From NCBI GenBank assembly GCA_026395055.1, contig JAPLZK010000004.1, positions 209,432 through 273,431 of the forward strand: a DNA stretch of 64,000 bases. Reading direction: 5' to 3'. Source of the stretch: Candidatus Uhrbacteria bacterium (GTDB lineage Bacteria > Patescibacteriota > Patescibacteriia > UBA9934 > GWF2-40-263). A model generated the notes under the pieces. The model did not search any database. It saw nothing but the letters and a program-made list of their open reading frames with translations, and was not told where the DNA came from. A program made the position numbers and the translations under genes. Every line of letters begins with the position of its first letter. Position 1 is the stretch's first letter. This document shows positions 4,082 to 14,911 of the stretch, one piece after another.

Positions 4082-4969
4082 TCACGTTCGCAACGTTTGT
4101 GAGGAGGAGATGGGTCTTGGTCTTCCGTAGATCATGGGTGCAACGTGAACATGGTCACGTCTGTCCGTTTCTTTTCCTCTGTACAAGGCATCGTTTGCAC
4201 ACGTAAAGAGTTGATTGAACATGTCGTCGACACCATGATCCGGTTTGATGTACGCACTTGCGACACCGATTGTAACTGTTTGGGTGATCTGTGTTCCGTT
4301 TGGCACAAAACACGGTGTTCTCTGCATGGCGCTGCGAATGCGTTCTCCAATCATTTTCCCGTTTCCAAGAATTTGATGGATATGCGGAAGGGTGGCGCCT
4401 GTTTGAGATCGTGCGGTATCACTGTATGGCTGATCACGATCTCGTTGTGCGTGATCTGGTGTTGGGTTATTTGCAACCGCGACGATAATGAATTCTTCGC
4501 CGCCCCAGCGCACAAGGATATCGCCCAAGCGAACGGATTGTTTCATGATGTTCGCAAACCACTGCAAGACCTGATCGCCCGCGGGGTTCCCTCCGTGTTT
4601 TTTGTTGACCTGACTAAAGTGATCAAGATCAAGCATGAGAACAGAGACAACACCATCGAATCGAATGGTTTTCAGTCGACCTAGCATTTGTTCGATGGAG
4701 ACACGACCCGGTTGTTGTCGCAGAAGTTCTGTCAGGCCATCGAGCGTGGCTTGCTCGTGGATGGACATGAGGTAACTTCGACCAACGGTCGTTTGAAAGA
4801 ACTCTTCGAAGATGGCTTGTTCTCGATCAGACGGAATCAGATCTGTGTGATCCGATGTCCCATCAGGGAATTGAACAATGATTTCTCCGCGTTGACCGTA
4901 GCGAATAGACAGCTTTGGTGGATCTTCCACGAGCACCTCCGAACGAGTGAATGGCCATATGGGGTTCAT
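4082..4969 (-). CDS. GGDEF domain protein (diguanylate cyclase-like)
   Basis: DLDHF, GD, RxxD I-site (RLGD), RWGGEEF, TVTIGVA. Confidence 0.85.
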   Translation of the reverse strand: MNPIWPFTRSEVLVEDPPKLSIRYGQRGEIIVQFPDGTSDHTDLIPSDREQAIFEEFFQTTVGRSYLMSIHEQATLDGLTELLRQQPGRVSIEQMLGRLKTIRFDGVVSVLMLDLDHFSQVNKKHGGNPAGDQVLQWFANIMKQSVRLGDILVRWGGEEFIIVAVANNPTPDHAQRDRDQPYSDTARSQTGATLPHIHQILGNGKMIGERIRSAMQRTPCFVPNGTQITQTVTIGVASAYIKPDHGVDDMFNQLFTCANDALYRGKETDRRDHVHVAPMIYGRPRPISSSQTLRT

Positions 4970-8326: not shown

Positions 8327-8764
8327 TTAGTGGCCGGTTGATCCAAAACCACCACGATCTGGTTTCTCGAGCATCTCAACAACGTTAAACGATGCTTTGA
8401 TGATTGGCATGATCATGCCTTGTGCTAGACGATCTCCTTTTGTGACGGTTACGGGGGTGTTTGTGAAATTGATGAGTTGCAGGAGAATTTCGTCATTTGG
8501 CCCACAATAGTCTTCATCAACAATTCCAATACCTTGAACAACCGTAAGGCCGAACTTTTTTGGGAGGGATGAACGAGCCGCTACGACGAGAACGTGGTTT
8601 TGCGGTGTGCAGATAACCAAACCCGTTCGAAGCCGAACGATCTCGCCCGGCGCAATTGTTGCGTTTTCGATGGTTGAGAGATCAAACGCACATGAACCGG
8701 GTGTTTTGTATTCTGGCAAGATGCCGTCAGGATGACATAGAAAGATGTCCACAGGGATGTTCAT
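8327..8764 (-). CDS. dut: trimeric dUTPase
   Basis: All five motifs: AFDL, RSS, GIVDEDYCG, GDRLAQ, RGGFGSTG. Confidence 0.93.
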   Translation of the reverse strand: MNIPVDIFLCHPDGILPEYKTPGSCAFDLSTIENATIAPGEIVRLRTGLVICTPQNHVLVVAARSSLPKKFGLTVVQGIGIVDEDYCGPNDEILLQLINFTNTPVTVTKGDRLAQGMIMPIIKASFNVVEMLEKPDRGGFGSTGH

Positions 8765-8829: not shown

Positions 8830-9696
8830 ATGAAAGCGTATCTTGACCTTGTGAATAAGATTCTGGACACAGGAATCGTGAAACCGACCCGTACGGGTAC
8901 GGATACCGTTGCGATTGCTGGCGCCATGTTTGAACATGATATGCGGGACGGATTCCCCATGCTTACAACAAAGAAAGTTCCGTTGCGATTGCCGGCCATT
9001 GAACTCGAATTTTTTTTGAATGGAAAAACAGATAAGGCTTGGCTCCAAGAACGCAATAGTCATATTTGGGACGAATGGTGCGCGCCGCATATTGTTCCGT
9101 ATGGCCACGATGCGGAGACAAAGGCTCGCATGCGCGAAGAGCGTGAACTTGGCCCCATCTACGGATTTCAATGGCGACACTTCGGTGCGGATTACGTCGA
9201 TCATCAAACGGATTATTCCGGACAAGGTGTTGATCAAATTGCAAAGCTTGTTGAAACATTGAAACGAGATCCGCATGATCGACGCATGATTGTGAGTGCA
9301 TGGAATCCGGCAGCGCTTCATCAGATGGCGTTACCTCCTTGCTATTACGGATTTCAGGTCACGGTTTTGAACGGACGAGTGAATGTGCTCTGGAGTCAGC
9401 GATCGGTTGATGTTGCACTCGGTTTGCCGTTCGACATTGTTGCACATGGACTTTTGCTGCATCTCCTCGCAAAGGAATCAGGACTGAAAGAAGGAAGGCT
9501 CGTCGGATTTTTGGGAGATGCGCATGTGTACACGAATCACATCGACGGACTAAGACAACAACTTTCTCGAGAGCCTGCGACATTACCACAGATTCGAACC
9601 GAGAATTTTACATCGATCTTTGATTGGAAACATACGGATACGACCGTCAAGGATTACAATCCGCATCCAAGTATTAAATTTGAGATTGCGATATGA
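8830..9696 (+). CDS. thyA: thymidylate synthase family protein with dCMP-type specificity residues
   Basis: RTGT, HIWDEW, GPIYGFQWR, RRMIVSAWN, LPPC(Y), QRSVD, GLPF(D), HVYTNH. Confidence 0.92.
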   Translation: MKAYLDLVNKILDTGIVKPTRTGTDTVAIAGAMFEHDMRDGFPMLTTKKVPLRLPAIELEFFLNGKTDKAWLQERNSHIWDEWCAPHIVPYGHDAETKARMREERELGPIYGFQWRHFGADYVDHQTDYSGQGVDQIAKLVETLKRDPHDRRMIVSAWNPAALHQMALPPCYYGFQVTVLNGRVNVLWSQRSVDVALGLPFDIVAHGLLLHLLAKESGLKEGRLVGFLGDAHVYTNHIDGLRQQLSREPATLPQIRTENFTSIFDWKHTDTTVKDYNPHPSIKFEIAI

Positions 9697-10196
9697 AGGT
9701 TGAACTTATTGCGGCGATGTCGCTCAACGGCAAAATTGCCGCGTCATCCGACCAGTCTTCACTTGAGTGGACCTCCAAAGAGGACACCAAGTTTTTTGTT
9801 GAAAAAACAAAAGAGTGTCGTGTCATGATTATGGGTCGAAAAACATTCGACACAATCGGTCGTGCATTGAAAGATCGATTGATTGTTGTGATGACATGCG
9901 ATCCTGAGAAACACGCGTTGATCGAAGGGGTTGAATATACGTGCGAGACGCCGCATCAGATTCTTAAGGATCTCGAATCACGAGGATATGCTTCGGTTGC
10001 GATTGCGGGTGGTGCGGGTGTTTACTCGATGTTCTTGAAAGAGAAGTTGGTTACGGATGTATTCCTCAGTATTGAACCGATTCTTTTTGGAAATGGAATT
10101 TCGCTTGCAGAATCGTTTGAAGATGTTAAGCTCAAGCTTGTTGAATCCAAACAGCTAGGAGAGCAAACCGTTCTCCTGCATTACGAGGTTGTATGA
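9693..10196 (+). CDS. folA: dihydrofolate reductase (DHFR/RibD-C fold)
   Basis: AAMSLNGKI, EDTKFF, IMGRKTF, IAGGAGVY; ATGA overlap with thyA. Confidence 0.85.
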   Translation: MKVELIAAMSLNGKIAASSDQSSLEWTSKEDTKFFVEKTKECRVMIMGRKTFDTIGRALKDRLIVVMTCDPEKHALIEGVEYTCETPHQILKDLESRGYASVAIAGGAGVYSMFLKEKLVTDVFLSIEPILFGNGISLAESFEDVKLKLVESKQLGEQTVLLHYEVV

Positions 10197-11095
10197 TCGA
10201 ATATCCTTATCTTCCACCAAATCGTGGATTCAAATTTGTTCCTTTGAATGATCCTCACATGATGGCCGCAGAAGTTGCTCGTCGCGAATGCGCGGGTGAT
10301 TCTCTCTGGCCGATTGGAATTGTTCTTGTTCGCGATGGTGAAATTCTCGCGCGTGCGGGAAACGGATTTAATCGGGGAAGTTCCTCGAAGCACATTTGCC
10401 CTCGCGTTGTTCTCGAATGTTCAAGCGGAACCGGTTACGATCTGTGCAAACTTCACGACTCGATCGGTCACGCAGAACCCATGCTCATGCAAGTTGCGGT
10501 TGACCAGGGAATCGATCCAATGGGGTGCGATGTCTACATGTTCGGTCACTGGTGGTGTTGCGAGCCGTGCTGGAAAGCCATGATCGATGCGGGAGTGAAA
10601 GATGTTTATGTTCTCGACGATGCTCACGAGAGATTCTCTCGTGAGAATGTGTTTGCCGAGACATTAACTTCGAGTGTTCGTTCAATTTTTTTCTCGCATG
10701 CATTCGATCAAACAAACCTCGCGGAGATGAAAGAACTCATTGGCACACTTGATGCGATGTGCGTTGAGCTTGGGTGTTCGACTACCATTCCATTTCGAGA
10801 TGGGCCTCTCGACGAACTCGCGCAAGAACACAACGAAGATGTGTTGTATCGATGGAGTGAACAACAGATTCCAATCTGTGACGTGCTCATCGCCGAAGTT
10901 TCCAATCCATCTCTTGGTGTTGGCGGTGAGATTGTTCTCGCCGAGAAGTTCGAGAAGCCTGTGATTCTTCTTTCAAAAAAGGGAATAAGGGTTTCTGAAT
11001 TTGTGACGGGGAATCCGGCGGTGGTGTACCATGTCGAGTATGAATCGATTATGGATGCGGTGAAGCAAGTGAGAAATGTGTTGAAGCAATTGTAA
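10193..11095 (+). CDS. dCMP deaminase-like domain fused to nucleoside 2-deoxyribosyltransferase/DNPH1-like domain
   Basis: HAE and CCEPC zinc motifs, CPR..SGTGYDLC; C-terminal DVLIAEVSNPSLGVGGE; ATGA overlap with folA. Confidence 0.85.
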   Translation: MIEYPYLPPNRGFKFVPLNDPHMMAAEVARRECAGDSLWPIGIVLVRDGEILARAGNGFNRGSSSKHICPRVVLECSSGTGYDLCKLHDSIGHAEPMLMQVAVDQGIDPMGCDVYMFGHWWCCEPCWKAMIDAGVKDVYVLDDAHERFSRENVFAETLTSSVRSIFFSHAFDQTNLAEMKELIGTLDAMCVELGCSTTIPFRDGPLDELAQEHNEDVLYRWSEQQIPICDVLIAEVSNPSLGVGGEIVLAEKFEKPVILLSKKGIRVSEFVTGNPAVVYHVEYESIMDAVKQVRNVLKQL

Positions 11096-11570: not shown

Positions 11571-13166
11571 TTATTTCAATATCTTCGCCTTCCTCAACAC
11601 CTCCCTCGGCGTATCCTTATATGGATGCAGTTTCCCCAGCGCCTTCAATGCCTGTTCCTTCGTAATAAATCCAACCGTGACTTCGCGCGCGAGTCTCGTA
11701 CTGTCCGGATGAAACCCAAGCAGGCGCTTTGCCATGCGCTCGGTGGATCGTGCAAACAGACAGGAGTTCGAATTCGATTCAATAAAATCTTCGCCGACGG
11801 GTGGTGTCCATCCAATTTTTTTCAACATCGCTTTTGTTTCTCGACTGGTTCGTTGTAACAGAAACGGAAGATGAAACACATACACAGCCGGTTTGTTTTT
11901 ATACGGTTGTAATTTTCTGACACCTGAAACTTTATATTCTTTTCCCGATTGCGCCGCACTCAAGTTTGTCCACTCGTTGATTCCAAGAACGATCGCGCGT
12001 GCACCGCGTTTCAGTGTCTCGTCATAATATGCGCGAATCACCATGCGACGACAAAGCTGGCAGGTGCGCACGAAGATTGGTGAATGTTTACACTTCACGG
12101 AATAATGTTTGCGTCCTTCTGCGTACGCTTTTTGAAACGCAAGCTTTGTCTCGAGTGTGAAGGGTTTCTCGTAAAGTGCGACGGTCTTCTCGTACGAAGC
12201 GTGATCGATTGGTCGAATGTAAGAGCGAATGTCGATCTCCTCGTGCGGAGTCTCGAGTAGCTTCGCCATTTCTTTTGATCGCGGCATAGTCGTGCGTGGA
12301 AGATATCCAAGATTGAATGTGACGGCGAGGGGATTGAATCCCATTTGTTTGATCGAAAGCAATGTGGCTGTGCTGTCTTTGCCGCCCGAGAGTCCGACGA
12401 GAATGTCGTGGTCATTCGATCCGGTACCGATGAAGGATTCAAGAAACTCGAGTTCTTCTTGCAAATGTGTTGGGTCGAAATGTGTTTGATAGGTATCGCA
12501 AATATGACAGAGGCCATTTTTCATGAACCGAATTGCGGGATTGCGCGCGGTGTTCACACAGTGTGTACACATTTGGTTCCATTGCTTAATGGTGTCTTCA
12601 ATGAGCTTGGCTGATCGATCTATACTCATTGTAGTTGTGTCGATTACAAGATTCGCGATCTTCTCAATTTGTTTTGTTTGATAAAGCACTTGTTCTTTTT
12701 TGAGTTCATCGACGGCTTGTTGTTTTGTATATCCGCGAGATTTCATTAAGCGACGAATGGCCGTTTGGTCGTCGACTTTGAGATAGACAACGAAGTCGTT
12801 ATGCAATCGACAATACTTTGCGTTGTCGATTCCGCGCAATCCACTAAAGACAAGCGTGGGTTGTTTTGAGTTCTCGAGAAATAACTCATGCAGAGCGCGT
12901 GCAATAAAGTCCGCACCATATTTCAATCGCAAGCGATCAAACATGTTCATGGCGTCTTCGCGAGATGCAAATGATTTGCGTTTCGAGAGTTGTCTCAGTT
13001 GTTCGATTAGCGTTTCCTCGTTCGGTAATTTCTTAACATGCGCAGCGATGGGGAATACGACCGCAGTCGAGGCTTCGATCACGCGCGCATGTAATCGCTC
13101 GGCAATGTTTTGTGCGAGTGTGGATTTTCCACTTCCAGGTTGTCCGAAGAGGGCGATGCGAATCAT
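11571..13166 (-). CDS. P-loop nucleotide kinase fused to PP-loop adenine-nucleotide alpha-hydrolase (amidotransferase-like)
   Basis: GQPGSGKST; CTHC..GLCHIC zinc region; LSGGKDS PP-loop; CQLC. Confidence 0.85.
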   Translation of the reverse strand: MIRIALFGQPGSGKSTLAQNIAERLHARVIEASTAVVFPIAAHVKKLPNEETLIEQLRQLSKRKSFASREDAMNMFDRLRLKYGADFIARALHELFLENSKQPTLVFSGLRGIDNAKYCRLHNDFVVYLKVDDQTAIRRLMKSRGYTKQQAVDELKKEQVLYQTKQIEKIANLVIDTTTMSIDRSAKLIEDTIKQWNQMCTHCVNTARNPAIRFMKNGLCHICDTYQTHFDPTHLQEELEFLESFIGTGSNDHDILVGLSGGKDSTATLLSIKQMGFNPLAVTFNLGYLPRTTMPRSKEMAKLLETPHEEIDIRSYIRPIDHASYEKTVALYEKPFTLETKLAFQKAYAEGRKHYSVKCKHSPIFVRTCQLCRRMVIRAYYDETLKRGARAIVLGINEWTNLSAAQSGKEYKVSGVRKLQPYKNKPAVYVFHLPFLLQRTSRETKAMLKKIGWTPPVGEDFIESNSNSCLFARSTERMAKRLLGFHPDSTRLAREVTVGFITKEQALKALGKLHPYKDTPREVLRKAKILK

Positions 13167-13226: not shown

Positions 13227-13883
13227 TTACAGTTTATATTTATTTTTCATTTCCCCAAGCGTTCCTTTAACAAGGTGTTGTCTCTCCTCATCCTTATCGA
13301 GCTTGTACGCCCCTGAATCAATGTTCGTATACTTTGCAGCACTCACGCCGTGGAGGTTTGCTTCTTCGATCGACAGCGACGACGCGAGTTCTTCGAAAAT
13401 CACCTGACACACACGTTCACCTGGGTACACACGAATAACTTGGTTGCCCGCTTCGTTTTTCATGGGAAAAATCAGATGGCCTTTGTAGCCGTTGTCGATA
13501 ATTCCGGAGAGGGAGAGATCAATCCCTCTTCGATTGGTCGATGTACGAGGAAACAGAATCGCCATCAGGTTTGGCGCATTGATCTCGACTGATTCAAGTG
13601 AAGTACCGATCACGAATTCGTTTGGGAGGAGCTCAAAAAATTGTCCGGGTTTCAAAATAACTTCTTCGAACTGTTCGCGATGACGTTCAACATCATCGAT
13701 AGAAATGTTAATGGCGCGTCGACCCGATTCATCAATCACCCAGTTTTTGGGAATCAGAAATTTATAGCCAAGTCGAAGATCAATGGCATGTGGTTGTAAT
13801 TGGAATGCATCAATCTCGGGATCAAAGGTGATTTCATGTTTCTCGATAGCAACCAGAATTTCGTGTTTTGTTAATACAGACAT
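13227..13883 (-). CDS. dCTP deaminase/dUTPase-fold protein lacking the deaminase Glu
   Basis: QLQPHAIDLRLG, RTSTNRRG, IDNGYKG, GERVCQ, C-terminal KY. Confidence 0.8.
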   Translation of the reverse strand: MSVLTKHEILVAIEKHEITFDPEIDAFQLQPHAIDLRLGYKFLIPKNWVIDESGRRAINISIDDVERHREQFEEVILKPGQFFELLPNEFVIGTSLESVEINAPNLMAILFPRTSTNRRGIDLSLSGIIDNGYKGHLIFPMKNEAGNQVIRVYPGERVCQVIFEELASSLSIEEANLHGVSAAKYTNIDSGAYKLDKDEERQHLVKGTLGEMKNKYKL

Positions 13884-14162: not shown

Positions 14163-14198
14163 CCCCCGCCTTCACAAGGAGGGGGTTAGGGGGTGGTC
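14163..14198 (-). repeat. REP-like hairpin repeat, copy 1
   Basis: GACCACCCCCTAACCCCCTCCTTGTGAAGGCGGGGG, similar to the copies at 37721 and 62454; overlaps the tmk stop. Confidence 0.75.
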
Positions 14199-14911
14199 AG
14201 TAGTTCTGAGATGAGTGCTACGGCGTTTGCTTGCGACTCTTCCAGTGTTTTGCTTGTATCTAATGTGTGAATCTTTGTTCCGTGTGACTCGAACAGCTCG
14301 CGAAACCAAGGTTCGCGATAACGTGCGTCTACACGACGCGCGAGTTCAACGTCCGCAAACACACCTGCTGCGCCTTGAGATGCAGGACGCAATCGAATGC
14401 GATCCACAACGCGTTCAACAGGTGTTGAAGTCAGAATGAGGTGATGAGGTGCGTGTTCAAGAGCGAGTTTGTTTCCCGGAAGATTCAAAATCTGCTCGAG
14501 TGACAAGCTGTATGGCTGGATTGGCTGATAAATGATCGACGTTGAAACGCCACGATCTTGCACGACGGTCTTACCCGCCTTGAGAGCGGGAAGAATCAAT
14601 CGGAGATACATGATTTGGCGATCAAGGGCGAATGCGTGTGCGAGCTCTTCACCCCCATACGGATGTTCCGTTTGCGACATTTCCTCTCGGAGTGCTGCAC
14701 CAATCCATTGTCGAGTAGGTTCAAACACAAAGTACACATCGAAATCCGCGATCTCTGCGAAGGTTGGTGGACGTTCACCTTTCCAGTCTTGTAAACGGAA
14801 ACAGCGCAAGCCTTTGGCTTGTAGCGTGTTGAACATTGCTTGAATGACGGTGGTTTTGCCACTGCCAACAATGCCGTCGATGAGAATGAAGTTGCCGGTG
14901 TTCATCAGCAT
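14186..14911 (-). CDS. tmk: thymidylate kinase family
   Basis: DGIVGSGKTT, EPT, FALDR, QDRGVSTSIIYQ. Confidence 0.85.
   Translation of the reverse strand: MLMNTGNFILIDGIVGSGKTTVIQAMFNTLQAKGLRCFRLQDWKGERPPTFAEIADFDVYFVFEPTRQWIGAALREEMSQTEHPYGGEELAHAFALDRQIMYLRLILPALKAGKTVVQDRGVSTSIIYQPIQPYSLSLEQILNLPGNKLALEHAPHHLILTSTPVERVVDRIRLRPASQGAAGVFADVELARRVDARYREPWFRELFESHGTKIHTLDTSKTLEESQANAVALISELLTTP

Follow-up and report, generated by a model that had tools for sequence, protein, structure and literature searches.

We propose that the ThyA homolog encoded at positions 8,830 to 9,696 of the window methylates dCMP, and that thymidine nucleotides in this bacterium are made by methylation first and deamination of 5-methyl-dC second. 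Based on sequence comparisons, we give this reading a probability of roughly 0.7. The window is the whole stretch of DNA analyzed here, 64,000 nucleotides in length, and the genome holding it is referred to as G000. The first-pass annotation had already suggested a natural dCMP C5-methyltransferase, and this seems to be the best reading of the locus, backed by the sharing of one genomic slot by two types of enzyme, the co-occurrence of a particular deaminase, and repeated convergence. The genes concerned form a cluster between gatB and rplA:

8327..8764, minus strand: dUTPase, divergent from thyA
8830..9696, plus strand: member of the canonical 288-aa ThyA clade, carrying Tyr172, Asp202 and His206; intact ORF, PF00303 with E 1.8e-91; predicted dCMP C5-methyltransferase
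9331..9345, plus strand: Leu168-Pro-Pro-Cys171-Tyr172, with the Leu143 equivalent kept, the catalytic Cys, and His147 replaced by Tyr
9397..9447, plus strand: Gln190-Arg-Ser192-Val-Asp194...Asp202...Ala205-His206, with the Ser167 and Asp169 equivalents kept, and Asn177 replaced by Asp, Ser180 by Ala and Tyr181 by His
9693..10196, plus strand: DHFR-like protein (DHFR_1 / RibD_C) with an ORF that overlaps the stop of thyA; predicted to regenerate THF
10193..11095, plus strand: zinc deaminase (H93-x-E95, C123, C126) with a DNPH1/MilB-like domain; predicted 5-methyl-dC nucleotide deaminase
11571..13166, minus strand: nucleotide-kinase / PP-loop (WbuX/QueC-like) fusion, within the cluster
13227..13883, minus strand: dCTP-deaminase homolog, Pro140 at 13464-13466; predicted pyrophosphatase, dCTP to dCMP and/or 5mdCTP to 5mdCMP
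14186..14911, minus strand: thymidylate kinase (Tmk)

Active-site residues of the window ThyA

The window ThyA is numbered with a constant offset of 25 relative to the E. coli enzyme. Applied to the key residues of E. coli ThyA listed in PMC13326640 (C146, Q165, D169, G173 and N177), this offset places Tyr172 at H147 and Asp202 at N177. The codons lie exactly where the first-pass annotation had put them, namely Cys171 (TGC) at 9340-9342, Tyr172 (TAT) at 9343-9345 and Asp202 (GAC) at 9433-9435. The catalytic machinery described there as intact is indeed so: the catalytic Cys, Arg, Glu58, His232 and Tyr234 are all kept, as are the equivalents of Leu143 (Leu168), Asp169 (Asp194), Ser167 (Ser192) and Arg126 (Arg151). 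The family profile, the catalytic Cys and the Arg that binds phosphate place the protein in the canonical ThyA fold and family, but it carries Tyr172 and Asp202 where canonical ThyA has His147 and Asn177. An AlphaFold model (pLDDT 94), which was built without ligand and confirms the fold only, matched thymidylate synthases best among PDB folds, with a TM of about 0.9.

Among 121 proteins comprising the query and its 120 best matches, 115 possess His and Asn at the two positions and six possess Tyr and Asp, while no mixed pair was found. A column scan revealed that His206, too, is a fixed change, which the first-pass annotation had not noted; 115/115 of the His/Asn relatives have Tyr181 there. 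Changes also lie close by at positions 204-205, among them Ala205 for Ser180, which likewise differs from 115/115. The window ThyA is 65-73% identical to the His/Asn enzymes.

Tyr and Asp are common to the ThyA sequences of four genomes of the same genus (L002-L005; 82-95% identical), and these same-genus genes use a different Asp codon, GAT. A dN/dS of 0.026-0.067 over 10 pairs of the same-genus Tyr/Asp genes indicates purifying selection. An assembly error or a private mutation, of which Asn/His in the reads and close homologs would have been the sign, is thus ruled out. Enzymes 93-95% identical to the window ThyA were also found in two records of Candidatus Uhrbacteria (L252 and L274), which identifies a lineage of Patescibacteria. 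Logan contigs of the runs X1 and X2 cover the stretch with no variant letter, albeit these runs are perhaps the source of the window DNA and not independent of it; the fragments that the run X3 contributed all lie outside the key codons.

The window ThyA is the sole ThyA in G000 (98% complete, 1.2 Mb), and a search of this genome for ThyX found none. A decayed, inactive ThyA in a cell salvaging thymidine from its host would agree with the thymidine kinase in the genome and with the change of at least three conserved active-site positions. We regard this as very improbable, as the low dN/dS, the retention of the catalytic residues and the independent recurrence of identical changes (see below) all argue against decay.

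Predicted substrate and product

The first-pass annotation stated that changing the adjacent His further favours dCMP, a claim that has mutagenesis behind it; in the data used here the link is a correlation. Positions 177 and 147 rank as the two most tied to modified cytosine, and Asp177 is the published determinant for dCMP (PMC8670742). A non-acidic Leu143 points to a methyl product and Asp169 excludes the 5-hydroxy type (PMC13326640), while Ser167 and Arg126 point to a deoxyribose substrate (PMC5175136). The preference of the first-pass annotation for methylation over hydroxymethylation is therefore supported, but on the grounds of Leu143 and Asp169 rather than those given, since ordinary ThyA loci also have the DHFR from which it had been argued.

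The shared Asp177 could also be read as a sign of another product, either 5-hydroxymethyl-dCMP or 5-hydroxy-dCMP, or of CMP as the substrate, as in MilA. The purpose would then be a modified base or some small molecule, and the DNPH1/MilB-like domain fused to the deaminase would release the base. Asp177 is indeed common to T4 gp42 and MilA, and a MilB/DNPH1-like domain does adjoin the deaminase. Nevertheless, the window enzyme has Leu168 at the position that is acidic in hydroxymethylases and MilA, Asp194 where 5-hydroxy synthases have Asn, and Ser192 and Arg151 where MilA has Ala and Lys. As the fused domain is also absent in four Tyr/Asp genomes, such a product seems highly unlikely, and a methylated deoxynucleotide remains our prediction.

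Genes accompanying the Asp-type ThyA

We surveyed a class sample of 401 genomes, of which 216 had a PF00303 match. Twenty-three were of Asp type (22 with Pro147 and Asp177, hereafter Pro/Asp, plus G000) and 193 had other ThyA, the residues of which were read in 92 and were all His/Asn. Score cut-offs were placed at gaps in the score output (for the deaminase subfamily of the window, E below 1e-20, the next score being 5e-6), and no p-value is given for the class counts because kin are not independent. This special deaminase subfamily was found in 21/401 genomes, namely 19/23 of the Asp-type genomes, 0/193 of the others with ThyA, and two without ThyA (G417 and G384) that possess ThyX instead. 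The last two imply that the special deaminase is tied to Asp-type ThyA with exceptions and may accept dCMP. At 60 His/Asn loci, no special deaminase was found (0/60), whereas an ordinary-type deaminase was nearby in 26/60.

The window deaminase is a PF00383 zinc deaminase encoded in cis with an Asp177 ThyA, an arrangement expected of the 5mC-selective mSCD deaminases, and an Atlas search placed it in PF00383 clusters. A pairwise comparison with the PaMx74 deaminase found no significant likeness. Its selectivity for 5-methyl substrates is predicted from the gene context. As for the phosphorylation state of the substrate, the TS-linked deaminase B5 acts on 5mdCTP and not on 5mdCMP (bioRxiv 2024.12.05.627091).

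The dCTP-deaminase (Dcd) homolog of the window belongs to a subfamily detected in 22 genomes of the class sample, 21/23 of the Asp type and 1/193 of the others. The single exception is G200, where it lies next to a His/Asn ThyA gene and the dCMP deaminase is of the ordinary kind. Pro140 of the window protein aligns with a Glu of the solved dCTP deaminases 2j4h, 4xjc and 2qxx; this site is Pro in 21/21 readable subfamily members and Glu in 7/7 readable distant ones. We take the lost residue to be the catalytic Glu of dCTP deaminase (E. coli Glu138). The gene at 13227-13883 lacks it, and we dropped the idea that the product deaminates 5mdCTP. The protein does keep the dUTPase-type Asp130, which suggests that it is likely a pyrophosphatase yielding dCMP.

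G000 also encodes ribonucleotide reductase, GlyA, CTP synthase and thymidine kinase. Searches of the genome for uracil-DNA glycosylase (UDG), a C5 methyltransferase, the MazG family, a match to a PRA-PH query, a second zinc cytidine-type deaminase and a second Dcd found none of them. The window DHFR falls in the same subfamily as the DHFR beside Pro/Asp enzymes, and a second DHFR/RibD_C-like gene of G000 lies at G000:C3:143453-143998 on the minus strand.

Several observations on these and adjoining genes are added here. The DNPH1/MilB-like domain fused to the window deaminase (10670-11095, plus strand) looks degenerate, with Phe in place of the Tyr of L023, and the four same-genus Tyr/Asp genomes lack it; it may clean up side products. 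G129 has a Pro/Asp ThyA but no zinc deaminase. Between its DHFR and Glu-less Dcd lies an amidohydrolase-family deaminase (L128:2145-3890) that carries the same DNPH1-like domain as a fusion, and is a candidate for a non-homologous 5-methylcytosine deaminase. G102 also has no zinc deaminase, and its Pro/Asp operon contains a second, very divergent ThyA-fold protein (L130:7366-8388; PF00303 E 5e-7). Tandem ThyX, two domains in one frame of 576-662 aa, was found in G001, G002, G384 and G417 (L336-L340). The kinase/PP-loop fusion of the window recurs in G057 and L356 (84%). Between miaA and gatB, at 4082-4969 on the minus strand, lies an ORF with a GGEEF motif, presumably encoding a diguanylate cyclase.

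Phylogenetic position and convergence

With the trait columns removed from the alignment, the window clade (8 rows, support of 100) nested within the His/Asn enzymes and far from the Pro/Asp group. A single clade uniting the window and Pro/Asp enzymes was rejected with a p-AU of 0.012 (57 rows). Across 221 rows, at least nine changes between Asn and Asp are needed (FastTree). The window locus resembles the Xp12-type systems in Asp177, a residue other than His at 147 (Tyr here, Pro in PaMx74), Leu168, Asp194, and the linked zinc deaminase and DHFR, whereas common descent with the lineage of PaMx74 and the Pro/Asp enzymes is contradicted by the above p-AU. We predict that the window ThyA works like an Xp12-type enzyme while standing outside that lineage.

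When metagenomes were scanned for the Tyr motif, three contigs were retrieved. One is window-like, and the two others (L357 and L358) encode a ThyA of 66% identity with Tyr147, Asp177 and His181, immediately preceded by the special deaminase. Altogether, the triple of Tyr147, Asp177 and His181 arose three times in the 288-aa ThyA clade (the window group, L357/L358, and P0101), and its single origin was rejected with a p-AU of 0.0009, or 0.001 without P0101 (36 rows). The P0101 enzyme (L273) is encoded with an ordinary-looking dCMP deaminase at its locus. Three further loci (L238, L246 and L253) represent a separate Pro/Asp conversion beside the special deaminase. GTDB was scanned with a motif that misses the Pro/Asp group as such, and 50 loci were retrieved; 34 encode real Asp-type ThyA, and 20 of those bear Patescibacteria-group names. 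All 54 viral motif matches were Asp-type ThyA.

The scans also brought up other combinations. Seven loci of a Patescibacteria group (L233, L262, L266, L270, L277, L279 and L280) encode a ThyA with His147 and Asp177 (PCH...PFD), adjoined in 6/7 by a distinct deaminase, and this is probably another independent conversion. Eight Pro/Asp ThyA sequences in Saccharibacteria- or Paceibacteria-labelled records (L237, L250, L254, L259, L264, L267, L278 and L281) have no deaminase nearby, and L267 also encodes a His/Asn ThyA; this set may thus serve another purpose, e.g., DNA modification or defence. Six records titled 'uncultured Gammaproteobacteria' (L238, L246, L251, L253, L265 and L268) are of Patescibacteria type in both ThyA and gene order, and their labels look wrong.

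Two enzyme types in the same genomic slot

In the family, 66/73 genomes have a match to ThyA, with only four close matches besides G000. The residue pairs read at 30 family loci were Pro/Asp in 22, Tyr/Asp in five and His/Asn in three, and the three His/Asn genomes possess neither the special deaminase nor the Glu-less Dcd. The Pro/Asp enzyme (Pro147 and Asp177) is merely 26-30% identical to the window ThyA and of separate origin, yet it occupies the same slot, with the same partner genes and Asp177. G061, a Pro/Asp genome of the same genus, has the gene order of G000: dut on the reverse strand, thyA, DHFR and deaminase forward, then dcd and tmk reverse, and rplA. In G059, a Pro/Asp enzyme is at the same place as well.

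In the tree of three flanking genes, from which G058 was dropped due to too few covered columns, the Tyr/Asp genome G062 grouped with the Pro/Asp genome G061 (support of 100/100). The Pro/Asp genome G059 grouped with the Tyr/Asp genomes G000, G057 and G063, again with a support of 100/100. Two changes of enzyme type are needed on this tree. The Tyr/Asp and Pro/Asp enzymes were thus exchanged more than once while their partners remained unchanged, which suggests that the two do the same job. When compared with phages, the Pro/Asp enzyme has PaMx74 among its best matches. The TS of this phage has Pro147, Asp177 and His181 and lies in a cassette of hydrolase, TS, dCMP deaminase and DHFR. PaMx74 and Xp12 are named as fully 5mC phages in bioRxiv 2024.12.05.627091.

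Proposed pathway and its history

In the pathway we propose, the Glu-less Dcd homolog would cut dCTP to dCMP, and the window ThyA, with Tyr, Asp and His, would convert dCMP and CH2-THF into 5-methyl-dCMP and DHF; both steps are likely. DHF would be recycled by DHFR and GlyA. The zinc deaminase would likely turn 5-methyl-dCMP, or its di- or triphosphate, into the T nucleotide, which Tmk would carry on to dTDP. As for its history, a His/Asn ThyA may have been acquired by transfer, displaced the ancestral Pro/Asp gene in place, been re-tuned to the substrate supplied by the resident pathway, and later spread or been swapped again within the genus. Provided that the cytosine-first reading is true, it is highly probable that such re-tuning happened repeatedly. 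We regard it as fairly probable, somewhat less so than the reading of the window locus itself, that many Patescibacteria make T cytosine-first with no dUMP step and that this route is entrenched enough for incoming ordinary ThyA to have been re-tuned to dCMP repeatedly by the three substitutions; the boldest form of this proposal would place 5-methyl-dCTP in their chromosomes, too, and give these cells a modified base like that of phages.

Some observations speak against the cytosine-first reading. The dUTPase and ribonucleotide reductase are kept and dUMP may be available, the thymidine kinase allows T salvage, Tyr147 differs from the Pro of the Xp12 type, the special deaminase accompanies ThyX in G417 and G384, an ordinary dCMP deaminase occurs in G200 and an ordinary-looking one at P0101/L273, the window deaminase shows no significant likeness to that of PaMx74, and two of seven phage Asp enzymes made no 5mdC when assayed. 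The enzyme might still methylate dUMP, or use both substrates, if Tyr172 and His206 offset Asp202 and dUMP comes from dCMP through the deaminase in the usual way. In line with this are the backbone 65-73% identical to His/Asn enzymes, the retained dUTPase and reductase, the special deaminase in two ThyX genomes, and G200, where the cluster works alongside a His/Asn ThyA. We consider this unlikely for three reasons. The switch by Asn-to-Asp is published (PMC8670742), an unchanged substrate would leave no need for the triple to arise three times separately, and the special deaminase was seen at 0/60 His/Asn loci, against 26/60 for the ordinary type.

The cytosine-first route could be extended to the chromosome, in which 5mC would replace much or all of C as in Xp12, with the Glu-less Dcd draining dCTP. 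Each component of the module (pyrophosphatase, TS, deaminase and DHFR) has its counterpart in the Xp12/PaMx74 cassette, C5 DNA methyltransferase is absent from G000 and three same-clade Tyr/Asp genomes, no McrC was found in any genome examined, and the kinase/PP-loop fusion sits inside the window cluster. However, C5 DNA methyltransferases, which would be redundant in fully methylated DNA, are equally common in both groups of genomes (matches in 9/26 of Asp type, seven of full length, and in 10/26 of Asn type), which argues against a 5mC chromosome. McrC was found in 0/52 across both groups and does not discriminate, and the kinase fusion is missing at the G058, G062 and G063 loci. We thus hold a 5mC chromosome to be improbable, and prefer 5-methyl-dCMP as an intermediate on the way to T. 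Loss of UDG, examined as a sign of uracil-free metabolism, showed no difference between the groups (UDG count of 4/26 in Asp type versus 3/26 in Asn type).

Novelty and implications

In the textbook view, cells derive dTMP from dUMP (PMC5519681). Our literature search, which left most subscription papers uncovered, found no cellular or Patescibacteria dCMP methylase, and no earlier account of the in-place swap of a Pro/Asp enzyme by a canonical ThyA. Passages of PMC10733785, PMC12697855 and PMC5519681 had no bearing on a cellular case, and PMC11974145 deals with CPR folA, not with the specificity of ThyA. The first-pass annotation knew of no earlier description of such an enzyme in a CPR housekeeping context; we found no cellular case either, but the enzyme class and the route are already known from phages such as Xp12 (bioRxiv 2024.12.05.627091).

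If true, a large uncultured group would make T by a second cellular route, a housekeeping one via 5-methyl-dCMP, and the thyA and dcd annotations in Patescibacteria would be wrong. Tyr147, Asp177 and His181 would be a natural three-residue recipe for dCMP specificity that can be assayed directly. The window locus is the most testable case, as its ThyA shares about 70% identity with the ordinary enzyme and has the changes at few positions. Its partner, the zinc deaminase, may be selective for 5mC, and enzymes of this kind are under development for methylation sequencing. A 2024 preprint is reportedly concerned with a 5-methylcytosine-based dTTP route with Parcubacteria enzymes; if it exists, the swap and the convergence alone are the new part.

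Comparison with known systems

The closest known systems are the Xp12/PaMx74 cassette and the metavirome pairs of Asp177 TS and mSCD, which share with the window the ThyA fold, Asp177 and a residue other than His at 147. They also share a zinc deaminase linked to the TS, a DHFR and a candidate pyrophosphatase, PaMx74 further shares His181, and the proposed route, from dCMP to 5mdC and dT, is the same (bioRxiv 2024.12.05.627091 and PMC8670742). In assays of Asp177 phage enzymes, five of seven made 5mdC and two of seven made none (bioRxiv 2024.12.05.627091). In contrast to the phage cassettes, the window genes form a chromosomal housekeeping cluster of a cell near gatB and rplA, include a trimeric Dcd homolog instead of a PRA-PH hydrolase, and bear no sign that the product is destined for DNA. 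The window ThyA is 28% identical to the PaMx74 TS and of another lineage, and the deaminase is of another subfamily.

Canonical ThyA (PF00303, TIGR03284; the 288-aa clade of Patescibacteria, DPANN archaea and Treponema) shares with the window enzyme its fold, its level of sequence identity, Cys, Arg, and the equivalents of Ser167, Asp169, His207 and Tyr209, and differs in His147Tyr, Asn177Asp, Ser180Ala and Tyr181His, each against 115/115 relatives. T4 dCMP hydroxymethylase (gp42) has Asp at 177, as the first-pass annotation pointed out, and so do the 5-hydroxy-dCMP synthases and MilA, but Leu143, Asp169, Ser167 and Arg126 set the window enzyme apart from them as of methylating, deoxyribose type. 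The engineered E. coli N177D and L. casei N229D enzymes are also canonical backbones turned to dCMP by Asn-to-Asp (as cited in PMC8670742 and PMC13326640). Unlike these, the window enzyme is natural and carries two more recurring changes, Tyr147 and His181. To our knowledge, neither change has ever been tried in the engineered enzymes.
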